From positions 17,717-81,716 of the forward strand of contig JACIYF010000002.1 of NCBI GenBank assembly GCA_014360065.1: a stretch of 64,000 bases of DNA, read 5' to 3'. Positions 8,179 through 57,860 of the stretch are shown in pieces (position 1 is the first letter of the stretch; every line of letters starts with the position of its first letter). The stretch is from Clostridia bacterium (GTDB taxonomy: Bacteria > Bacillota > DSM-521 > Neomoorellales > JACIYF01). The notes under the pieces were generated by a model. The model had not been told where the DNA came from. It ran no database searches and worked only from the letters and a program-made list of their open reading frames with translations. Both the position numbers and the translations under genes were made by a program.

Positions 8179-8214
8179 TAGAAAGCCTCCTCGTAAAAAC
8201 ACATGCTCCTAGCT

Positions 8215-8228
8215 GCCAAGCACTCAAC
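8215..8228. repeat. Single copy of the dispersed repeat core (GCCAAGCACTCAAC), in the hisC 5' leader.
   Basis: Direct match to the core GCCCAGCACTCAA with one mismatch. On the minus (mRNA) strand it reads GTTGAGTGCTTGGC, about 37 nt upstream of the hisC ATG. Confidence 0.7.
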
Positions 8229-8376
8229 TTGTTCAACATCAACCAGCAAGGCATTGGCCTATCCGGGTCCGGTTAGACCCCATATCTGTAGTGTCGACTC
8301 GAGTACTGGCTTCGCTCCATAACCCTGCGTGGAGTCGCCACCGGGCCTTGGGCCAAAGCCTGAGCCCAAGGTCCAG

Positions 8377-15000: not shown

Positions 15001-16587
15001 CTAGGAACCGCCACCCTCGCCGCTCTGGCCGCTGCCACCGCCTCCACCGCCTTGGCCGCCGCCACCGGCGCCGCTCTGGCCACCGCCTTGCGCCCCTGGA
15101 GCTGCGCCCGGTCCAGGCGGCTGAGGTTTAATTTGCACGCTCTGGATTTCCCCTTCTACCTCCATGGTGAAGGTCTTGCCATCTTTAGTCTTGATCTGCA
15201 CCAGATTGCGGGGTTTGGGGCCGCCTTGGCCACCGCCAGCCTGGCCACTTTGGCCTTCTCCGCCACCGCCTTGACCGCCCTGGCTGCCGCCTCCAGATCC
15301 GCCGCCGCTTTGGCCGCCGCCTTGGCCACCGCCACCGCCTCCACCGCCTTGGCCGCCTGCTTGACCAGGAGCAGCAGCATGGCGCTGCTGGATGAGGTAG
15401 ACGTTCTCCGGCTGCACCAACCGGGCAGGAACAATCTTGGCAGGCACATCGTAATCTCCTGCCGCCAACTGCTGGTTGTAGCTCCAGTTGGATCGCTGGG
15501 CCAGCTCCCGGGCGGCTTCATAAGCCGTTTGTAAAGCTACATCCGGCTGGGTATCGATCTCAGCTTGTTGGCTTCCCTGGTTGAGGGCGCTGGCCGCATC
15601 TTTGCCCCCACCTACGCCTACGCATATGACCTTGCCGGCCAGGTTATTAGCAACCAGCGCCTGGCTAAGGGAGGAAGCAATCTGATCGTCGGCTGCCAGC
15701 ACTGCACCCAAGGGAAGGTGCTTCTTTAGCAGAGAGAAAACGGTGGCATCGGGGCTCAGGCCGGCCGGGACCTGGTCAGTTATAACCTGTAGCTGGTTAC
15801 CAACTGCCGAGCGTAAACCCGACAGCATCAGGCTGGTCTCCGGCTGAGCGTTACCCCGGCTAATGAAAAGCACCCGAGGGCTGGTCAGGGCTAGGGTTCG
15901 CATGGGGCCGGCCGCTTGGCCAGCTCCGCCTCCGCCCGCGCCCCCACCGCCGGCACCCCCGCCACCAGCTCCGCCGCCCGGGCTACCACCGGCTGCGCCT
16001 CCTCCCTGACCGCCGCCGGCTGCACCTGCACCGCCGCCACCGCCCCCGCCGACGGCTCCCAGCATGGTAGGCGCTGGGGCCTTAGCTTCGCCCCGGCGGA
16101 CTTTCTGCAGAAACTGGCCCTGGAGCTCACCGATGCGTCGGGGATCGGCACCCACATAACCTTGGACTGGTACCCCATCGGGTAAGCGGCCGATGGCCAC
16201 GATGGGCAGCTGCCGATTCAGGGCTTCACGCAGGACGGTGGAGCCCTGCTTAGGATCAACGGGCTCAATGATTAGAGCCTTGATCTCCGATTTTACCAAT
16301 TCGCCCACATCCCGCTCTTGCTGGCTACTATCACCCTTGGCATCTTTTACGATCAGCTGCACCCGGTCCTGCTGCTGCCTAGGCATCAAGGTGCGCTGAA
16401 CCAACTCGGCCGTCCCCCCGACCCCGGCCAAGCTGACCCCAATCTTGGTAGGTGGAGTAATGGGTTTTTGGGAGCCCCGCCGGCTGCAACCGCCCATGCA
16501 GGTACTAACAGCAATGATGATGACGGTAACTGTAACAGCAACAACCGAGATCAGACTAGAACCCCTGGATTTGGCCACGACATCCAC
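15001..16587 (-). CDS. Lipoprotein with a type-1 periplasmic sugar-binding (RbsB/LacI-like) fold, interrupted and extended by poly-Gly low-complexity tracts.
   Basis: 528-aa ORF with TM/lipobox (AVSTCMGGCS) and PBP1-like blocks (IGVSLAG..., ALIIEPVD, PIVAIGR, GYVGADP, VLAADDQIA, VGVGGG). It carries a roughly 48-aa Gly/Ala insert and a 121-aa C-terminal G/Q/S tail. Confidence 0.6.
   Translation of the reverse strand: MDVVAKSRGSSLISVVAVTVTVIIIAVSTCMGGCSRRGSQKPITPPTKIGVSLAGVGGTAELVQRTLMPRQQQDRVQLIVKDAKGDSSQQERDVGELVKSEIKALIIEPVDPKQGSTVLREALNRQLPIVAIGRLPDGVPVQGYVGADPRRIGELQGQFLQKVRRGEAKAPAPTMLGAVGGGGGGGAGAAGGGQGGGAAGGSPGGGAGGGGAGGGGAGGGGAGQAAGPMRTLALTSPRVLFISRGNAQPETSLMLSGLRSAVGNQLQVITDQVPAGLSPDATVFSLLKKHLPLGAVLAADDQIASSLSQALVANNLAGKVICVGVGGGKDAASALNQGSQQAEIDTQPDVALQTAYEAARELAQRSNWSYNQQLAAGDYDVPAKIVPARLVQPENVYLIQQRHAAAPGQAGGQGGGGGGGGQGGGQSGGGSGGGSQGGQGGGGEGQSGQAGGGQGGPKPRNLVQIKTKDGKTFTMEVEGEIQSVQIKPQPPGPGAAPGAQGGGQSGAGGGGQGGGGGGSGQSGEGGGS
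15004..15366 (-). repeat. Low-complexity GGN-codon tract encoding the C-terminal Gly/Gln/Ser tail.
   Basis: Runs of gccacc/gccgcc units are visible in the sequence. The translation is GQAGGQGGGGGGGGQGGGQSGGGSGGGS...GGGGQGGGGGGSGQSGEGGGS, flanking a short beta-like segment (PRNLVQIKTKDGKTFTMEVEGEIQSVQIK). Confidence 0.8.
15910..16053 (-). repeat. Low-complexity tract encoding the internal Gly/Ala insert.
   Basis: Translation is VGGGGGGGAGAAGGGQGGGAAGGSPGGGAGGGGAGGGGAGGGGAGQ, lying between the two PBP lobes. Confidence 0.8.
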
Positions 16588-16743
16588 CCTTTAGCTCATT
16601 CTTCCCGCTCGCTCTTTATTATCCTCAGCTGGGGGATTTTTATGTTTGCGGGCCCCTCCTCCCTCAGGTTTAGGAATTGTCGAAAGTGCGTAGACTATTA
16701 GTGCCCCGCGGGACTGAGCCGCGCAGGATTACGGAGCGGACCT

Positions 16744-16837
16744 AGCACTCAAATCGGGGCTTCCATCGCGAGATCTAGCCTGAATTGGATAGCCAAACCT
16801 TGCCAGTGATGGCGAGCCCGAGATTGAGTGCTGGGCG
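16744..16837. repeat. Inverted doublet of the dispersed repeat core (REPIN-like unit U1).
   Basis: AGCACTCAA at 16744-16752 and TTGAGTGCTGGGCG at 16824-16837 are inverted, with a spacer of about 70 nt. The flank GCGCAGGATTACGGAGCGG (16720-16738) recurs inverted at 42184-42202. Confidence 0.7.
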
Positions 16838-22528: not shown

Positions 22529-22679
22529 TTAATTTTCCTCCCAAAGACCAGTATGTTCCAGATCATCTATGCCGGAGCCTTGATCCTCCGCTCCGCCCAA
22601 CCCTCGACCGTGGACCCAATATAACCAGACCAAGCCTTGGCTACCTGGTCCAGGCAAACTCCGCACCGGCGATGCCGAA

Positions 22680-22691
22680 TTGAGCGCTGGG
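22680..22691. repeat. Degenerate single copy of the repeat core (TTGAGCGCTGGG).
   Basis: One mismatch to TTGAGTGCTGGG. The nearby CCTCCGCTCCGCCCAACCCTCG resembles the CCTCCGCTCCGTAATCCTGCG flank at 42181-42201. Confidence 0.45.
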
Positions 22692-22754
22692 TGCAGAGCC
22701 ACCTAAAGCGCCACCTCAGGCTCCGATGACAGGGGAAACGGCTGACTTCGGCGC

Positions 22755-26001: not shown

Positions 26002-26127
26002 AGTTTCACCTCCCCCAAACCTACACTTCCACAGGCCGCTGGTTGCCCACTTTACCCAGCCCTCAACCGTGGGCTCAAAATATCCCTCGCTTTTTGCACC
26101 TAATTGCAAAGCTTAGCCGCGCATGGC

Positions 26128-31438: not shown

Positions 31439-31473
31439 ATTGCATCTCCTCCAAGCAACCATTTACTTCTGCC

Positions 31474-31574
31474 CCCAGCACTCAACCCAGTGCTCAACAC
31501 AACCCGACAAGGTGTTGGTTGTTGTCCGGTCCGGCTAGACTCCGCGCCTACAGCCCCGATTTGAGTGCTGGGCC
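31474..31574. repeat. Inverted doublet of the dispersed repeat core (REPIN-like unit U2), in the ftsH-ndk intergenic region.
   Basis: CCCAGCACTCAA at 31474-31485, an adjacent variant CCCAGTGCTCAAC, then TTGAGTGCTGGGCC at 31561-31574. AGCCCCGATTTGAGTGCT equals the reverse complement of 16744-16761. Confidence 0.75.
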
Positions 31575-35431: not shown

Positions 35432-38173
35432 CTATTCCAACAAGGCCACCACTACGGTCATATCATCGTAAGCTACCCCGCGGGCATGGTTGAGAGCTTC
35501 CTGAAGAATCACTTGGGCCATGGCCTGAGCATCGGCCGGGGGCAGGTCCCTAAAAAAGGTTGGCAACCATTCTCCCCCGCCTCCGCCCTTATCTTCACCG
35601 TTCCCCCAATCCGCCTCCATCGTAGCGCTAAGGCTGGCTACCCGAGGGCTAGTAGCGGAAGGGCCCGTGGCCGGAGGGCCAACCGCCAGCGAGCCAGCTG
35701 CCGGGGACCCGTTGGCAACCCTGTTGGCCCGGTCGGAATGATTGTGCCGAGCCGCATCCAGAACCCCGTCGCTAAACAGGCAAAGGATATCTCCGCTCCG
35801 CAACCGATAACGAACCGGGTGGATCTCAATCTGGTCCAGGATCCCGGCTGGCAGGCTGGGGGAGCGCACCATGGCCACCCGTCTCCCCCTCTTCACCAGG
35901 CTGGGCAAGGCGCCAACTTTAATAAACTCCCCCTCGCCGGAATGCAGGTTCAATATCACCAGATCGATGGTGGCAAAGCTATCCTCCTGGGAAGTAAGCA
36001 GCATAGAACCATTAGCCAAGCGGACCGCGGTCTCGGCAGGCAATCCCGCCTCCAGGAACTCTCTGATCAGGCCAATGGTCTTGGCGCTCTGCTGGGCCGC
36101 TTCGGATCCCGACCCCATGCCATCGCTTACGACCAAGGCCCAACGTCCTGACCCTAACGGAAAGCTGGCCCAATTGTCCCCGCAAAGTTGCTTGCCCTCC
36201 CGACAAGCTTGGGCGCCGCCAACCTTCACCTTGAGCGGCGGTGCAGCTACGATGGAGAAATTGCAAGTAGAAGGGCCGCAAGCCCGGTTGTCCAAGGTCA
36301 TAGGTTTACCTACCAGTTTGCCGACCAGGGGAACAATTTGGCTTAAGCATAGCCCGCTTTGGCCGCAAAGCCTTCCTGCGGCTCCTTCCTGGCCACCCTC
36401 CGTATCATTAAGCCCCGGCGCTGCCGGGACTGGCCCGGGTACCTCCAAACCCACTATTATCTCCAAAGGCTCCTTCAGCACCTTAACTTCGCTCACCGGT
36501 AGTCGCCGTTCCTTGAGTTGGGCCGATATTCCTTGCTCCCAATCAGCATCGAACTCAACCTCGGACTGAACTTGAGTAGCAGCCTGCTCCAGGAAGCTGG
36601 CCATGCCTCCAGCTTGGTAGGCGAGAATGCGCCGACCTTCATTTACCTTCTGCCTCCACCACCGCTGCTGCTGCCAGCTTTCTCGCCACCACTCCGCCAG
36701 CCAAAGCAGTTCCCGAGTGCGTGAGCAACGCCGGGCGATGTCCTTGTCTAGATGCTTCTCTTCCACCGGCCCCATCCGGGCAGCAGCCAAAAGGCCTAGA
36801 AAGGCCCGATAAGTGTCGTAATAGTTTTTCTCCCAGCACAGGCGATAGAGGGTGCAAGGGCGACAGATCTCCCGCTCCAAGCGTTCCACTCCTTGGGTGA
36901 GCTTGTCCTCCTCAGCGCCGGTGACCACTGCATCCTGAAAAGTCCGCCTGAGTTCATCCATGGCTCGGGCCGAGCGCCGGAGGCGTTGCCCCACTATCCA
37001 CCGCCATTTTTTACCCTCGCTAGAAGCCTTCTTATTGGCAGCTGGCAGACCGGCGCTAGACCGCCAACCCAGCCCGGCCAACAATCGCCCGGGAAGGGCT
37101 AAAAACAGAGCCACAGCTACTACGGTTTCCCCCAAGAAGCCTAGCAGAGTGACCCGGTCAGCCGCATAGGGAGAGAGCGTGAGGGTGCCGATGATAAAAG
37201 CCAAAGCCAGCCCCCATTTACCATAGCGGCGCAAGGCGCCAGCCAAAAGCCCTATTAGGGCATAGTAGCCTATGGCCGGCGATAGGATTAAAGATGAGAG
37301 GGAAGGAATTAGGCCCACCGCCGCCCCTACGCCAGCTCCTGCTCCACTGCCTCCGGCAGCCGCAGCTAGGAGAATCAGCAACCGGCCGGCTACCCCTAGG
37401 GCAGAAATCCCTCCCCACTCCCAGCCGCCGAGGCCGGAAACCATACCCAAGGCTAGAATCAGAAGAGCTACCACCTCCTCTCCAGCCAAGCGCTGATCCT
37501 TAAGCCGGTATATAGCCTCGGTAGCCGCCAAAAAGGCTACCGCTAAACCACCCGCTAAACCAGCTTCCAGTACCACCTTCCCAAGCCAAGCTAGATCGAT
37601 TCCCCTCAGAGCGCCCACCCCGGAATTTAGGCCTGAGGTTAGGACTCCTTGCCCCTCTGCCCCTAAGGGCAACGGGGCAATGGACCTGGCTTGAAACATA
37701 TGGATGGCCAGCTCTCCCACTCCCTGGGTAATCAAGGTGGATATAACAACCAACCCCGGCACCATCAGCCAACGGCGGTCGAAAGGCAGGTTAGCCCGCC
37801 GCAGCATAACGGCTAGCAGAACCAAGTTTACTAGGCGGGGCCAAAGCTGCGGCCCCTGGGCAGCGGAGATGGTGCCGGCCAGGCTTCCCAAAAGTATCGG
37901 TCCGGCCCGGGAAGGGTTAAAGGCTATGGCTGCCGCCAAAAAGGCTGGCCCCATAGGAAAGAGCTGGTCTTGAATGCTGGCCCGGCTAAGCAGGAACGCA
38001 CTGAAAGCCCAAGCCAGCACCCGGGCCACATCCGCCCAAGTAGGCCCGGCCCGCTCTAGGTTGGTAGGTGTAGACCTGCCTCTTGCCATCTTGCGCGCCC
38101 GCTGTCGCCGCCAGATAACTGAACTCTCATACCCAGATGGCCGAGATTCGAGCACCGGCATCGCCCCCAGCAT
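35432..38173 (-). CDS. spoIIE: Stage II sporulation protein E (membrane-anchored PP2C phosphatase).
   Basis: 913-aa ORF with a long polytopic N-terminal region and a C-terminal PP2C/SpoIIE domain (CGDNWASF...VVSDGMGSG...FATIDL...LFSDGV...DDMTVVV). Confidence 0.85.
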   Translation of the reverse strand: MLGAMPVLESRPSGYESSVIWRRQRARKMARGRSTPTNLERAGPTWADVARVLAWAFSAFLLSRASIQDQLFPMGPAFLAAAIAFNPSRAGPILLGSLAGTISAAQGPQLWPRLVNLVLLAVMLRRANLPFDRRWLMVPGLVVISTLITQGVGELAIHMFQARSIAPLPLGAEGQGVLTSGLNSGVGALRGIDLAWLGKVVLEAGLAGGLAVAFLAATEAIYRLKDQRLAGEEVVALLILALGMVSGLGGWEWGGISALGVAGRLLILLAAAAGGSGAGAGVGAAVGLIPSLSSLILSPAIGYYALIGLLAGALRRYGKWGLALAFIIGTLTLSPYAADRVTLLGFLGETVVAVALFLALPGRLLAGLGWRSSAGLPAANKKASSEGKKWRWIVGQRLRRSARAMDELRRTFQDAVVTGAEEDKLTQGVERLEREICRPCTLYRLCWEKNYYDTYRAFLGLLAAARMGPVEEKHLDKDIARRCSRTRELLWLAEWWRESWQQQRWWRQKVNEGRRILAYQAGGMASFLEQAATQVQSEVEFDADWEQGISAQLKERRLPVSEVKVLKEPLEIIVGLEVPGPVPAAPGLNDTEGGQEGAAGRLCGQSGLCLSQIVPLVGKLVGKPMTLDNRACGPSTCNFSIVAAPPLKVKVGGAQACREGKQLCGDNWASFPLGSGRWALVVSDGMGSGSEAAQQSAKTIGLIREFLEAGLPAETAVRLANGSMLLTSQEDSFATIDLVILNLHSGEGEFIKVGALPSLVKRGRRVAMVRSPSLPAGILDQIEIHPVRYRLRSGDILCLFSDGVLDAARHNHSDRANRVANGSPAAGSLAVGPPATGPSATSPRVASLSATMEADWGNGEDKGGGGGEWLPTFFRDLPPADAQAMAQVILQEALNHARGVAYDDMTVVVALLE

Positions 38174-38437: not shown

Positions 38438-38513
38438 GGTAGCGGTGGTAGGATTCGAACCTACGACACTACGGGTATGAACCGTATGCTCTAACCAGCT
38501 GAGCTACACCGCC
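38438..38513 (-). tRNA. tRNA-Met (anticodon CAU), elongator type.
   Basis: Minus strand reads GGCGGTGTAGCTCAGCTGGTTAGAGCATACGGTTCATACCCGTAGTGTCGTAGGTTCGAATCCTACCACCGCTACC. The cloverleaf folds by hand. It lacks the three G-C pairs of an initiator anticodon stem. Confidence 0.9.
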
Positions 38514-42132: not shown

Positions 42133-42202
42133 ATTAGCTTCCTCCTCCAAAAAACATATATTTCCAGCTGGGGCGCTGTTCCTCCGCTCCGTAATCCTGC
42201 GC

Positions 42203-42215
42203 GCCCAGCACTCAA
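42203..42215. repeat. Single copy of the repeat core (GCCCAGCACTCAA) in the DUF606 gene leader.
   Basis: Exact core, preceded by CCGCTCCGTAATCCTGCGC, which is the inverse of 16720-16738. Confidence 0.75.
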
Positions 42216-47139: not shown

Positions 47140-47152
47140 GCCCAGCACTCCA
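47140..47152. repeat. Single copy of the repeat core (GCCCAGCACTCCA), between hdrA and the 147-aa gene.
   Basis: One mismatch to the core. It lies in a 78-nt intra-cluster gap. Confidence 0.6.
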
Positions 47153-48211: not shown

Positions 48212-48247
48212 GTTCTGTCCTCCTCCAAAAAACATTTACTTCCAGCC

Positions 48248-48260
48248 ACCCAGCACTTAA
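48248..48260. repeat. Single copy of the repeat core (ACCCAGCACTTAA), between hdrB1 and hdrA.
   Basis: Two mismatches to the core. In mRNA sense it is followed by CTGGAAGTAAATGTTTTTTGGAGGAGG. Confidence 0.6.
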
Positions 48261-53344: not shown

Positions 53345-53443
53345 GGGGGTGGATGGGTCCTGGTGGGTTCCCTGGACTTCAAATCCAGTGGCGCTCAGGC
53401 CACTCCTGGGCGCGGTGGGTTCGATTCCCACACACTCCCGCCA
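53345..53443 (+). tRNA. selC: tRNA-Sec (selenocysteine, anticodon UCA), 99 nt with encoded CCA.
   Basis: Hand fold: acceptor GGGGGTG(G)/(A)CACTCCC; 6-bp D-stem with a 4-nt loop (GGGTCC-TGGT-GGGTTC); anticodon arm CTGGA-CTTCAAA-TCCAG; 9-bp variable arm GCGCTCAGG-CCACT-CCTGGGCGC; T arm GTGGG-TTCGATT-CCCAC; G73-CCA. Confidence 0.8.
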
Positions 53444-56077: not shown

Positions 56078-56205
56078 GCCCCTTCTTATCTTTCCGGCCG
56101 TTGTTATCCAACGCCGGCAGGAGTTGGCACCTTTCAGGCGCTAGCCGCCTGGAGGTTGCCGAGGTTCATCGGGCCTTTCCCTCCCCTACTCTGGATAAGA
56201 AGTGA
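56078..56205 (-). promoter_or_regulatory. SAM-I (S-box) riboswitch controlling metY-metX.
   Basis: Minus strand reads TTCTTATCCAGAGTAGGGGAGGGAAAGGCCCGATGAACCTCGGCAACC...GGTGCCAACTCCTGCCGG...GGAAAGATAAGAAGG. This matches the S-box consensus blocks (CTTATC.AGAG.GG.GGAGGGA..GGCCC.ATGAA.CC.GCAACC / GGTGC.AA.TCC / AGATAAG). Confidence 0.9.
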
Positions 56206-57630: not shown

Positions 57631-57729
57631 GCCCAGCACTCAGCTGACTGACCCTAGCTTGGGTTCCACACTATGCGCAGCAAGCTGTTTGTGGGGGCTG
57701 CAGTCTCGCGGTTGGTTGAGTGCTGGGCG
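57631..57729. repeat. Inverted doublet of the dispersed repeat core (REPIN-like unit U3).
   Basis: GCCCAGCACTCAG at 57631-57643 and TTGAGTGCTGGGCG at 57716-57729. Confidence 0.75.
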
Positions 57730-57763
57730 ACCAATTCGACCTCCTGTCTCAAGAGGCCGGCCT

Positions 57764-57860
57764 CCCCAGCACTCAACCACAAAAAATACCATGGCCCATG
57801 GACACTCGCTTTCTGGGCAGGGTAACCCCATTACCGGGTTCATAAGTTGAGTGCTGGGTC
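57764..57860. repeat. Inverted doublet of the dispersed repeat core (REPIN-like unit U4).
   Basis: CCCCAGCACTCAACC at 57764-57778 and TTGAGTGCTGGGTC at 57847-57860. In addition, 57714-57778 forms GGTTGAGTGCTGGG-N37-CCCAGCACTCAACC. Confidence 0.75.

Follow-up and report, generated by a model that had tools for sequence, protein, structure and literature searches.

Intervening sequences (IVSs) occupy helices 25 and 45 of the rRNA of Salmonella, Campylobacter, Leptospira, and Coxiella, and insertions are also found in Desulfotomaculum, Thermoanaerobacter, and Clostridium paradoxum; in the Desulfotomaculum and Thermoanaerobacter groups, 16S and 23S rRNA genes with such insertions are known from work of the 1990s. 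Rickettsia palindromic elements (RPEs) insert in frame into protein-coding genes. Other palindromic repeats are the repetitive extragenic palindromes (REPs), the bacterial interspersed mosaic elements (BIMEs) that contain them, and the REP doublets called REPINs. Presented here is a family of dispersed hairpin units, each closed by the same 12-bp stem, found in a 64,000-nucleotide (nt) stretch of a Clostridia bacterium genome (GenBank assembly GCA_014360065.1, contig JACIYF010000002.1, positions 17,717 to 81,716; called the window) and in many other genomes. The reading that we favor by a modest degree is that the unit is a small nonautonomous hairpin element whose closing stem is recognized; the unit would settle on hairpin tips or take their place, with no duplication of the target, and be tolerated as a self-contained helix extension.

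A hairpin unit with a nearly invariant closing stem

Matches to the core TTGAGTGCTGGGC with at most two mismatches numbered 15 in the window, compared to 2.66 expected, and none of 100 shuffled sequences reached 15, which bears out the repeat family reported in an earlier sequence-only reading of the window. Pairing of left- and right-arm 12-mers (at most three mismatches per arm and four in total, gap of 55 to 95 nt) yielded six units in the window and none in 50 shuffles. Window units consist of CCCAGCACTCAA, 70 to 75 nt, and TTGAGTGCTGGG, with a total length of about 95 to 100 nt. The four doublets of the sequence-only reading had been placed correctly to within 1 to 4 nt, and its single copies at 42203, 47140, and 48248 are true solo arms, but those at 8215 and 22680 proved to be arms of two further doublets with a degenerate partner arm. 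The inventory is thus six units and four solo arms (the fourth a degenerate arm at 26054), all noncoding. That all copies are intergenic had been claimed and holds for 14 of the 15 core matches; the match at 37970, within spoIIE, is probably due to chance, and the match at 26054 is intergenic, since the called panD gene has 127 amino acids and its real start is downstream of the match.

The window units fold with the arms as the closing stem, with z-scores of −1.8 to −5.0 for four units folded on both strands, six of the eight folds having z-scores of −3.4 or lower. The gene (minus) strand gives the better fold for three copies of an interior subfamily (subfamily A) and the plus strand for one unit; for two units the strands do not differ. 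The best-strand minimum free energy of real units was no lower than that of the same arms placed around random genomic interiors, a control that was GC-richer. The arm CCCAGCACTCAA (12 to 13 nt) has no internal dyad, and only the two arms of one unit pair together, unlike a canonical REP, an imperfect palindrome of 20 to 40 nt, two of which in inverted orientation make up a REPIN; the arm is a 12-nt half-site and not an imperfect palindrome, and a unit is therefore one hairpin rather than two inverted REPs. The interiors had been considered unrelated between units, which is true of the tandem pair, whose interiors are unique, but not of subfamily A, a homologous interior common to units 8215, 22594, and 31474 and to the reverse complement of unit 16741.

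The anatomy of the unit was examined in 83 units with nonredundant interiors, selected with a filter of at most two mismatches per arm, which does not favor double changes. These units share an almost invariant 12-bp closing stem around a variable, usually AT-richer, self-folding interior of about 55 to 85 nt. All twelve stem positions were paired in 94 to 100% of units, and substitutions were frequently matched on the other arm, as at position 1 (C:G in 77 units, T:A in 5, and A:T in 1), position 4 (A:T in 72 and C:G in 4), and position 12 (A:T in 69 and G:C in 10). By our own tally of the pair counts, 20 changes were compensatory double changes and 15 were one-sided; the arms are selected for pairing or copied from each other. 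Inward of the stem, pairing fell to 72% and 60% at the next two positions, after which the register was lost; outward, pairing ended abruptly beyond position 1, with an R..Y preference only there. The flanks showed a weak Y-N-R preference per side, and their logos contained no GTAG/CGTC-type tag. None of the 83 units had a target-site duplication of ≥4 nt, and shorter matches were near the level of shuffled controls. Interiors were AT-richer than their genomes, with an interior GC content that tracked that of the host (r = 0.65 over 31 assemblies).

Units were strongly depleted from coding DNA. Only 12 of 170 units were located in an open reading frame (ORF) of ≥150 amino acids, compared to 76% of random segments, and these 12 represented spurious ORFs or leaders, with no convincing coding insertion; the sole candidate for an in-frame protein insertion, in an RNase R gene (L037), is located upstream of the first domain. 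Distances of the 170 units to gene starts and ends were spread out, with more units near gene ends and no distance to start codons that was generally preferred.

Occurrence in other genomes

One genome per GTDB species was scanned for the pattern CCCAGCACTCAA-N55-85-TTGAGTGCTGGG, and at least 120 stretches were recovered, compared to approximately 0.1 matches expected by chance for 24 specified bases (our own calculation). At least 31 assemblies, the majority of them Bacillota of the Desulfotomaculia and Moorella types, contained the 12-bp stem. Among the matches listed, Bacillota included the metagenome-assembled genomes (MAGs) MAG044, MAG163, and MAG002, Thermoanaerobacteraceae Yes71-27, Desulforudis, Ammonifex, Moorella, Pelotomaculum propionicicum, and Sporotomaculum syntrophicum; other matches listed included MAGs labeled Thermoanaerobaculum, KSB1, Thermotogae, Spirochaetaceae, and Portnoybacteria, among others. 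The window's own genome was not among the matches listed. The identical stem in several Bacillota classes, Spirochaetota, Acidobacteriota, KSB1, and other MAGs overturns the earlier suggestion that the repeats belong to one lineage. The spirochaete contig is genuinely spirochaetal, as the named best hits of its adjacent DnaX were all Spirochaetales, Spirochaetia, or Spirochaetaceae.

Arms in the fetched loci occurred almost exclusively as left...right pairs with starts 70 to 100 nt apart. The family is amplified in some genomes: the loci fetched from MAG044 (302 kb) held at least 62 units, many of them near-identical and falling into few interior subfamilies. Beyond the arms, the window interiors showed no similarity to units in the fetched loci. 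Full-text literature searches, which included the arm sequence itself, returned no description of the element.

Units within structured RNA genes

Units were also found inside genes for structured RNAs. Rfam annotation placed units within bacterial RNase P RNA class A at five loci (L011, L046, L054, L062, and L105), and covariance-model alignments placed the arms as stems of P3, P12, and P14; in L105 the unit fills the P18 loop region. With the units removed, these RNase P RNAs were 59 to 67% identical in pairwise comparisons, except for L046 and L054 (88%), so the same 12-bp stem sits in deeply divergent lineages. As in rRNA IVSs, units formed stem-loops at rRNA helix tips in P. propionicicum MGP, with two units in the 16S rRNA gene (L085) and one in the 5′ part of the 23S rRNA gene (L045), and in S. 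syntrophicum, with one unit near the 3′ end of the 23S rRNA (L019), presumably in the helix-98 region by comparison with Escherichia coli; the window copies are intergenic. Cis-regulatory RNAs were occupied as well: a glmS ribozyme (L086) contained a unit and measured 379 nt compared to a 167-nt model, and a T-box leader containing a unit (L092) was detected with an E value of 3e-11, under the gathering score.

On the Spirochaetaceae contig (L109), a unit replaces the variable arm of a tRNA-Ser(CGA), which ARAGORN called only once the unit was excised. Orthologous tRNA-Ser(CGA) genes of two spirochaete relatives (L125 and L127, with DnaX 79% and 74% identical) contained variable-arm insertions of 88 nt and 118 nt (L125, 1070-1215; L127, 215-395), and ARAGORN missed all three genes. 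The closing stems of these two insertions differ from the CCCAGCACTCAA core, which L109 alone carries, and the insertions may represent other core families of hairpin elements. Giant variable arms seem to be conserved in this spirochaete lineage, which indicates that the giant arm is old and tolerated there and fits an exchange of one hairpin for another.

In all 16 units within RNA genes, the sense strand folded better than the antisense strand (mean, −8.8 kcal/mol), as expected if the units belong to the folded RNA. Intergenic units oriented by codirectional flanking ORFs showed no sense-strand bias (6 versus 9).

An expanded 5S rRNA gene of S. syntrophicum (L019, 5726-5915) measured 190 nt compared to a 120-nt model and lacked the CCCAGCACTCAA core. 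It is in line with the 5S rRNA expansion segments and insertions reported from the same taxa, where a CCCAGCACTCAA-type core was not described (PMC7812874).

Filled and empty hairpin tips

Flanks of filled sites were sought brought close together elsewhere, as would be expected of empty sites. The filled site TCCCGGTGGCGA-[unit]-TCGTGAACGACT had the empty counterpart ...GGCGA-CGATGAATCG-TCGTG..., in several variants of the small palindrome, and the filled site GGATGCTCA-[unit]-CTCCGCTCCG had the empty counterpart ...CTCA-CGTACTTCTATGTACG-CTCCG.... In these comparisons the unit stands exactly in place of a small apical hairpin, such as CGATGAATCG or CGTACnnnnnnGTACG. Nested copies in MAG044 were arranged similarly, with the inner unit replacing about 12 nt at the apex of the outer unit. 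One locus (L008) carried an extra unit and a 17-nt spacer absent from another (L115), with flanks 94% identical, and in L083 and L117 one slot was occupied by the same unit subfamily in opposite orientations.

These flanks, filled and empty, are parts of another dispersed repeat, about 200 to 330 nt long and here called the scaffold, which has several slots and was found in MAG044, MAG163, MAG002, and CTOTU1356. Immediately before genes, some scaffold copies terminate in a TATAAG-like box and a Shine-Dalgarno sequence. Units, linkers, and scaffolds are arranged in a way reminiscent of the BIMEs of E. coli. In MAG044, the 3′ end of a group II intron (domains V-VI; L026, 3645-3718) is followed, about 60 nt downstream, by a unit/linker mosaic.

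A second conserved block noted in the sequence-only reading (block 2) is present in the window as exact, inverted, and degenerate copies, as stated there (Table 1). Block 2 is homologous to the scaffold segment (..ACGGAGCGGAG) that precedes one hairpin slot in related MAGs, and CCCGGTGGCGA, beside unit 8215, matches another scaffold flank; the window therefore contains eroded pieces of the same mosaic.

Interpretation and alternative explanations

A mobile hairpin would account for these observations as follows. Judging from the anatomy of the units, a folded single strand would be recognized through its closing stem by a dedicated trans-acting factor encoded elsewhere, and the unit would come to sit on, or be swapped for, the tip of a preexisting hairpin or palindrome without target duplication. 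Because its fold is a self-contained helix extension, the unit would be tolerated wherever a helix tip is free; such tips may be offered by intergenic spacers and untranslated regions (UTRs), as in the window, by peripheral helices of rRNA and RNase P RNA, by the tRNA variable arm, and by glmS and T-box leaders. Units would accumulate side by side and inside the second repeat, which would produce BIME-like mosaics with conserved linkers, block 2 being one of them.

Several observations weigh against this account. Mobility by a dedicated enzyme is what we infer, and no Y1/RAYT (REP-associated tyrosine transposase) or other gene family recurred beside units when 3,160 ORFs from 940 kb in 31 assemblies were clustered. 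The unit had no copies in the viral contigs of IMG/VR. The scan of GTDB genomes required exact cores, and both the number of copies and the range of hosts are biased, minimum estimates. What looks like replacement of small hairpins may stem from gene conversion among paralogous repeats, or from subsequent trimming, and not from the original insertion. Interiors have drifted toward host GC content while the 12-bp sequence was kept, and its exact retention in RNase P RNAs approximately 60% identical fits a sequence-specific cellular function of the stem at least as well as it fits recognition by a transposase. Finally, the 16 RNA-gene units with better-folding sense strands are not all independent, as L046 and L054 are related.

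Other searches for a mobilizing gene gave similar results. Transposase families were absent from the window regions with retrieved Pfam-annotated gene calls (about 7 to 38 kb and 47.5 to 57.5 kb), to which extent the earlier statement that the window lacks a RAYT gene stands, and from flanking ORFs scanned against Pfam. No small ORF flanked by arms was present in 940 kb around units, and the intervals between unusual arm pairs held housekeeping genes. [quoted passage not shown]

Points such as the retention of the stem raise the possibility, which we consider doubtful as the primary explanation, that the 12-bp duplex is a processing or binding signal at the RNA level for a conserved double-strand-specific factor (an RNase III-type enzyme or a binding protein). 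On this view, the units would serve as intervening sequences or expansion modules cut from, or decorating, stable RNAs and mRNA leaders, and their spread would be secondary, so that this explanation is compatible with a mobile hairpin. Classical rRNA IVSs are stem-loops of about 100 nt that are removed from the precursor by RNase III, which leaves the rRNA fragmented, and the units in 16S and 23S rRNA, RNase P RNA, tRNA-Ser, glmS, and T-box RNAs, together with their uniform sense-strand folding advantage, are consistent with such a signal. It would also better explain why the core sequence, and not merely its pairing, was kept in divergent RNase P RNAs, and one interior subfamily is oriented alike with respect to its host transcripts in glmS, T-box, and mutS-mutL contexts. 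However, intergenic units lack the sense-strand bias, subfamily A of the window occurs in both orientations relative to codirectional genes, and the many near-identical and nested MAG044 copies look like selfish amplification. Tentatively, and with about as little confidence, the duplex may be a sequence-specific handle for a widely distributed factor that acts on folded nucleic acid, with the units as a novel structure-targeting class of elements grafted onto hairpin tips, either by integration into abundant structured RNAs that are then copied back to DNA or via single-stranded DNA.

The sequence-only reading had proposed a canonical REP/REPIN family, which would be mobilized by a single-copy RAYT (Y1, IS200/IS605-like) encoded elsewhere in each genome. 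What remains of this proposal is a set of dispersed hairpin repeats that are confined to noncoding DNA, lack target duplications, and alternate with conserved linkers in BIME-like fashion, and a single-copy RAYT is easily missed in a 64-kb window. We nevertheless regard it as improbable, since the arm is not palindromic alone, the GTAG/CGTC tag is missing, and neither an arm-flanked small gene nor a recurrent Y1 or other family was detected in the 940 kb examined; units inside RNA genes are likewise not predicted by a REPIN model. To our knowledge, described REPINs codiverge with their host RAYT, and cross-phylum identical arms and RNA-gene copies are not among their features. Most improbable of all are the explanations in which the arms are regulator binding sites of a regulon, integron attC sites, or invertible promoter switches, even with three solo arms located 36 to 37 nt upstream of start codons, inner ends of some units that match attC R boxes (ACTCAAC ... 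GTTGAGT), and one subfamily found in both orientations in the same slot. The fixed spacing derives from a shared 29-nt module described below, and gene-start distances are spread over 170 units. Units within rRNA, RNase P RNA, and tRNA genes cannot act as operators or as promoters, and these positions largely refute such explanations. Integron attC sites have R″/R′ boxes (RYYYAAC / GTTRRRY) at their outer ends and come in cassette arrays with an IntI integrase; in the units, the conserved stem lies outside the putative R box and continues outward, conservation is lacking at the G of GTT (position 13 was C:G in only 32 of 83 units), window copies are spaced 5 to 10 kb apart with no cassette arrays, and the Pfam hits obtained for the gene calls retrieved included no integrase family. 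Taken together, a mobile hairpin placed at helix tips remains the reading to which we give slight preference.

Repeat copies and other features of the window

The neighbors of the window repeats (Table 1) are ordinary housekeeping genes, including those for an aminotransferase, ndk, ftsH, coaX, Hdr-like CCG/Fer4 proteins, an AMP-binding enzyme, and a phosphotriesterase (PTE)-family protein. Unit 8215 lies between an ACT-domain gene and the aminotransferase gene, approximately 37 nt upstream of the aminotransferase ATG, and unit 57764 is flanked by the AMP-binding enzyme and PTE-family genes. The left arm of unit 31474 is duplicated, with the second copy at 31486-31497, and the terminal G of the left arm of unit 57631 produces a G·T pair on the plus strand.

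Table 1. Positions of hairpin units, solo arms, and associated linkers in the window, and of scaffold copies in MAG044
Feature	Position	Strand	Remarks
Unit, subfamily A	8215-8311 (arm pair 8216-8310)	+	Left arm GCCAAGCACTCAA, degenerate right arm TCGAGTACTGGC
Degenerate block 2, TTCGCTCCATAACCCTGCGTGG	8311-8332		Abuts unit 8215
Linker block 2, CGCGCAGGATTACGGAGCGGA	16720-16740		Exact; inverted exact copy at 42183-42203
Unit, subfamily A	16740-16836 (arm pair 16741-16835)	−	Inverted relative to the other three subfamily A members
Unit, subfamily A	22595-22692 (arm pair 22596-22691)	+	Degenerate left arm CCCAACCCTCGA
Degenerate solo arm, TTGAGGGCTGGGT	26054-26066	−	panC-panD spacer; also present in L122
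Unit, subfamily A	31473-31573 (arm pair 31474-31572)	+	Interval between ftsH terminator and ndk ribosome-binding site
Inverted block 2 (42183-42203) fused to solo arm (42203-42215)	42183-42215	−	Upstream of YdcZ-family gene
Solo arm, TGGAGTGCTGGGC (gene strand)	47140-47152	−	78-nt spacer within Hdr-like gene cluster
29-nt 5′-UTR module, GCTGGAAGTAAATGTTTTTTGGAGGAGGA (gene strand)	48218-48246	−	Adjoins arm; includes Shine-Dalgarno sequence
Solo arm, TTAAGTGCTGGGT (gene strand)	48248-48260	−	37 nt upstream of FAD-oxidoreductase ATG
Unit, unique interior, first of tandem pair	57631-57728 (arm pair 57632-57727)		Left arm ends in G
Unit, unique interior, second of tandem pair	57764-57859 (arm pair 57765-57858)		35-nt spacer after first
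Scaffold copies (MAG044)	L097, 5450-5900; L023, 760-960; L059, 5750-6150		Small hairpins alternatively replaced by units

The 29-nt module separates a solo or terminal arm from the start codon in genes that are unrelated, with further copies at 42140-42168 and 8185-8213 and a weaker one recognized by eye at 31447-31472. As it contains the ribosome-binding site, it resembles a 5′ UTR that is shared or transduced, and the spacing of 36 to 37 nt between three solo arms and their start codons, as read from the sequence, results from this module and not from a regulon rule. Promoters were considered and rejected: with the arm as the −35 box of a sigma-70 promoter, the spacing to the −10-like TAAATG is inconsistent (14 or 16 nt), and the GG/GC spacing in the module does not fit a sigma-54 promoter.

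In a close relative (L122), units 31474 and 22594 are kept at orthologous sites, and the unit-bearing spacers are approximately 95 to 98% identical to those of the window; in a more distant relative (L124), the ftsH-ndk spacer contains a solo arm only. Given these orthologous sites and interiors that have diverged and match nothing in the fetched loci, the window copies are old and probably immobile relics. Their present effect is likely limited to stable stem-loops or possible sites for a double-strand-specific RNase in a few leaders and intercistronic spacers, a modest consequence for the window itself.

A Logan contig from an independent assembly (L128, SRR12572866_989, 9,530 nt) corresponds roughly to 48.2 to 57.7 kb of the window, and both its ends, by gene coordinates, seem to be no more than about 100 to 250 nt from the repeat copies at 48.25 kb and 57.6 to 57.7 kb, which suggests that repeats and linkers break short-read assemblies. 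No Rfam family matched the units or the scaffold repeat, and at gathering thresholds the window gave only a SAM riboswitch (56083-56201, minus strand) upstream of an O-acetylhomoserine sulfhydrylase gene, a tRNA-Sec gene (53345-53443, plus strand), and a tRNA-Met gene (38438-38513, minus strand). Most direct-repeat families in the window originate from an ORF with a periplasmic-binding-protein domain and long Gly-rich low-complexity repeats (15001-16587, minus strand).

Comparison with known systems

Insertions of the rRNA type appear to belong to one dispersed, cross-phylum family with an invariant 12-bp stem, which also occupies intergenic DNA, RNase P RNA, tRNA, and cis-regulatory RNAs. This would connect dispersed intergenic palindromic repeats with the puzzling rRNA insertions of thermophilic and syntrophic Clostridia, which have so far been dealt with apart, and extend both to the other RNA classes. 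The stem is a searchable signature and explains why covariance-model and tRNA scans miss or underscore such genes, as with the tRNA-Ser that was invisible to ARAGORN until its unit was removed and the T-box under the gathering threshold. The origin of expansion segments in bacterial structured RNAs becomes testable, and the 12-bp duplex, as RNA or DNA, could serve as bait for the responsible enzyme. If the duplex is indeed a handle for a widely distributed factor, the expansion segments of bacterial rRNA, RNase P RNA, tRNA, and riboswitch leaders would have a source in this family.

Like the REPs, BIMEs, and REPINs of Enterobacteria and Pseudomonas, the units are short noncoding hairpins that lie among housekeeping genes, lack target duplications, and form alternating mosaics with linkers. 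They differ in being single large hairpins with 12-nt nonpalindromic arms and interiors of 55 to 85 nt, with no tag and no Y1 gene found, and in having arms identical across phyla and copies in structured RNA genes. With rRNA IVSs they share the form of stem-loops of about 100 nt on the tips of peripheral rRNA helices and a patchy distribution, and the P. propionicicum 16S and 23S and Sporotomaculum 23S units are such insertions; the family differs in its tens of intergenic sites per genome and its copies in RNase P RNA, tRNA, glmS, and T-box RNAs. RPEs and the MITEs of Coxiella are likewise selfish palindromes that survive inside functional genes by folding away from the core of the host molecule, but unlike RPEs the units avoid coding DNA and occupy RNA helix tips. 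Integron attC sites also have a conserved paired base, a terminal structure of variable form and length, and recognition as a folded single strand, whereas the units have a 12-bp stem of another sequence logic, a spacing of 5 to 10 kb, and no cassettes or integrase. The bulge-helix-bulge introns in tRNA and rRNA genes of archaeal Thermoproteales, to whose spread grafting by a duplex handle may be likened with a different motif and machinery, are similar in that related short insertions with a structural motif at the base occur at many positions of stable RNAs. The units have no bulge-helix-bulge at the base, and we know of no splicing endonuclease for them; their hosts are bacterial, and most of their copies are intergenic.

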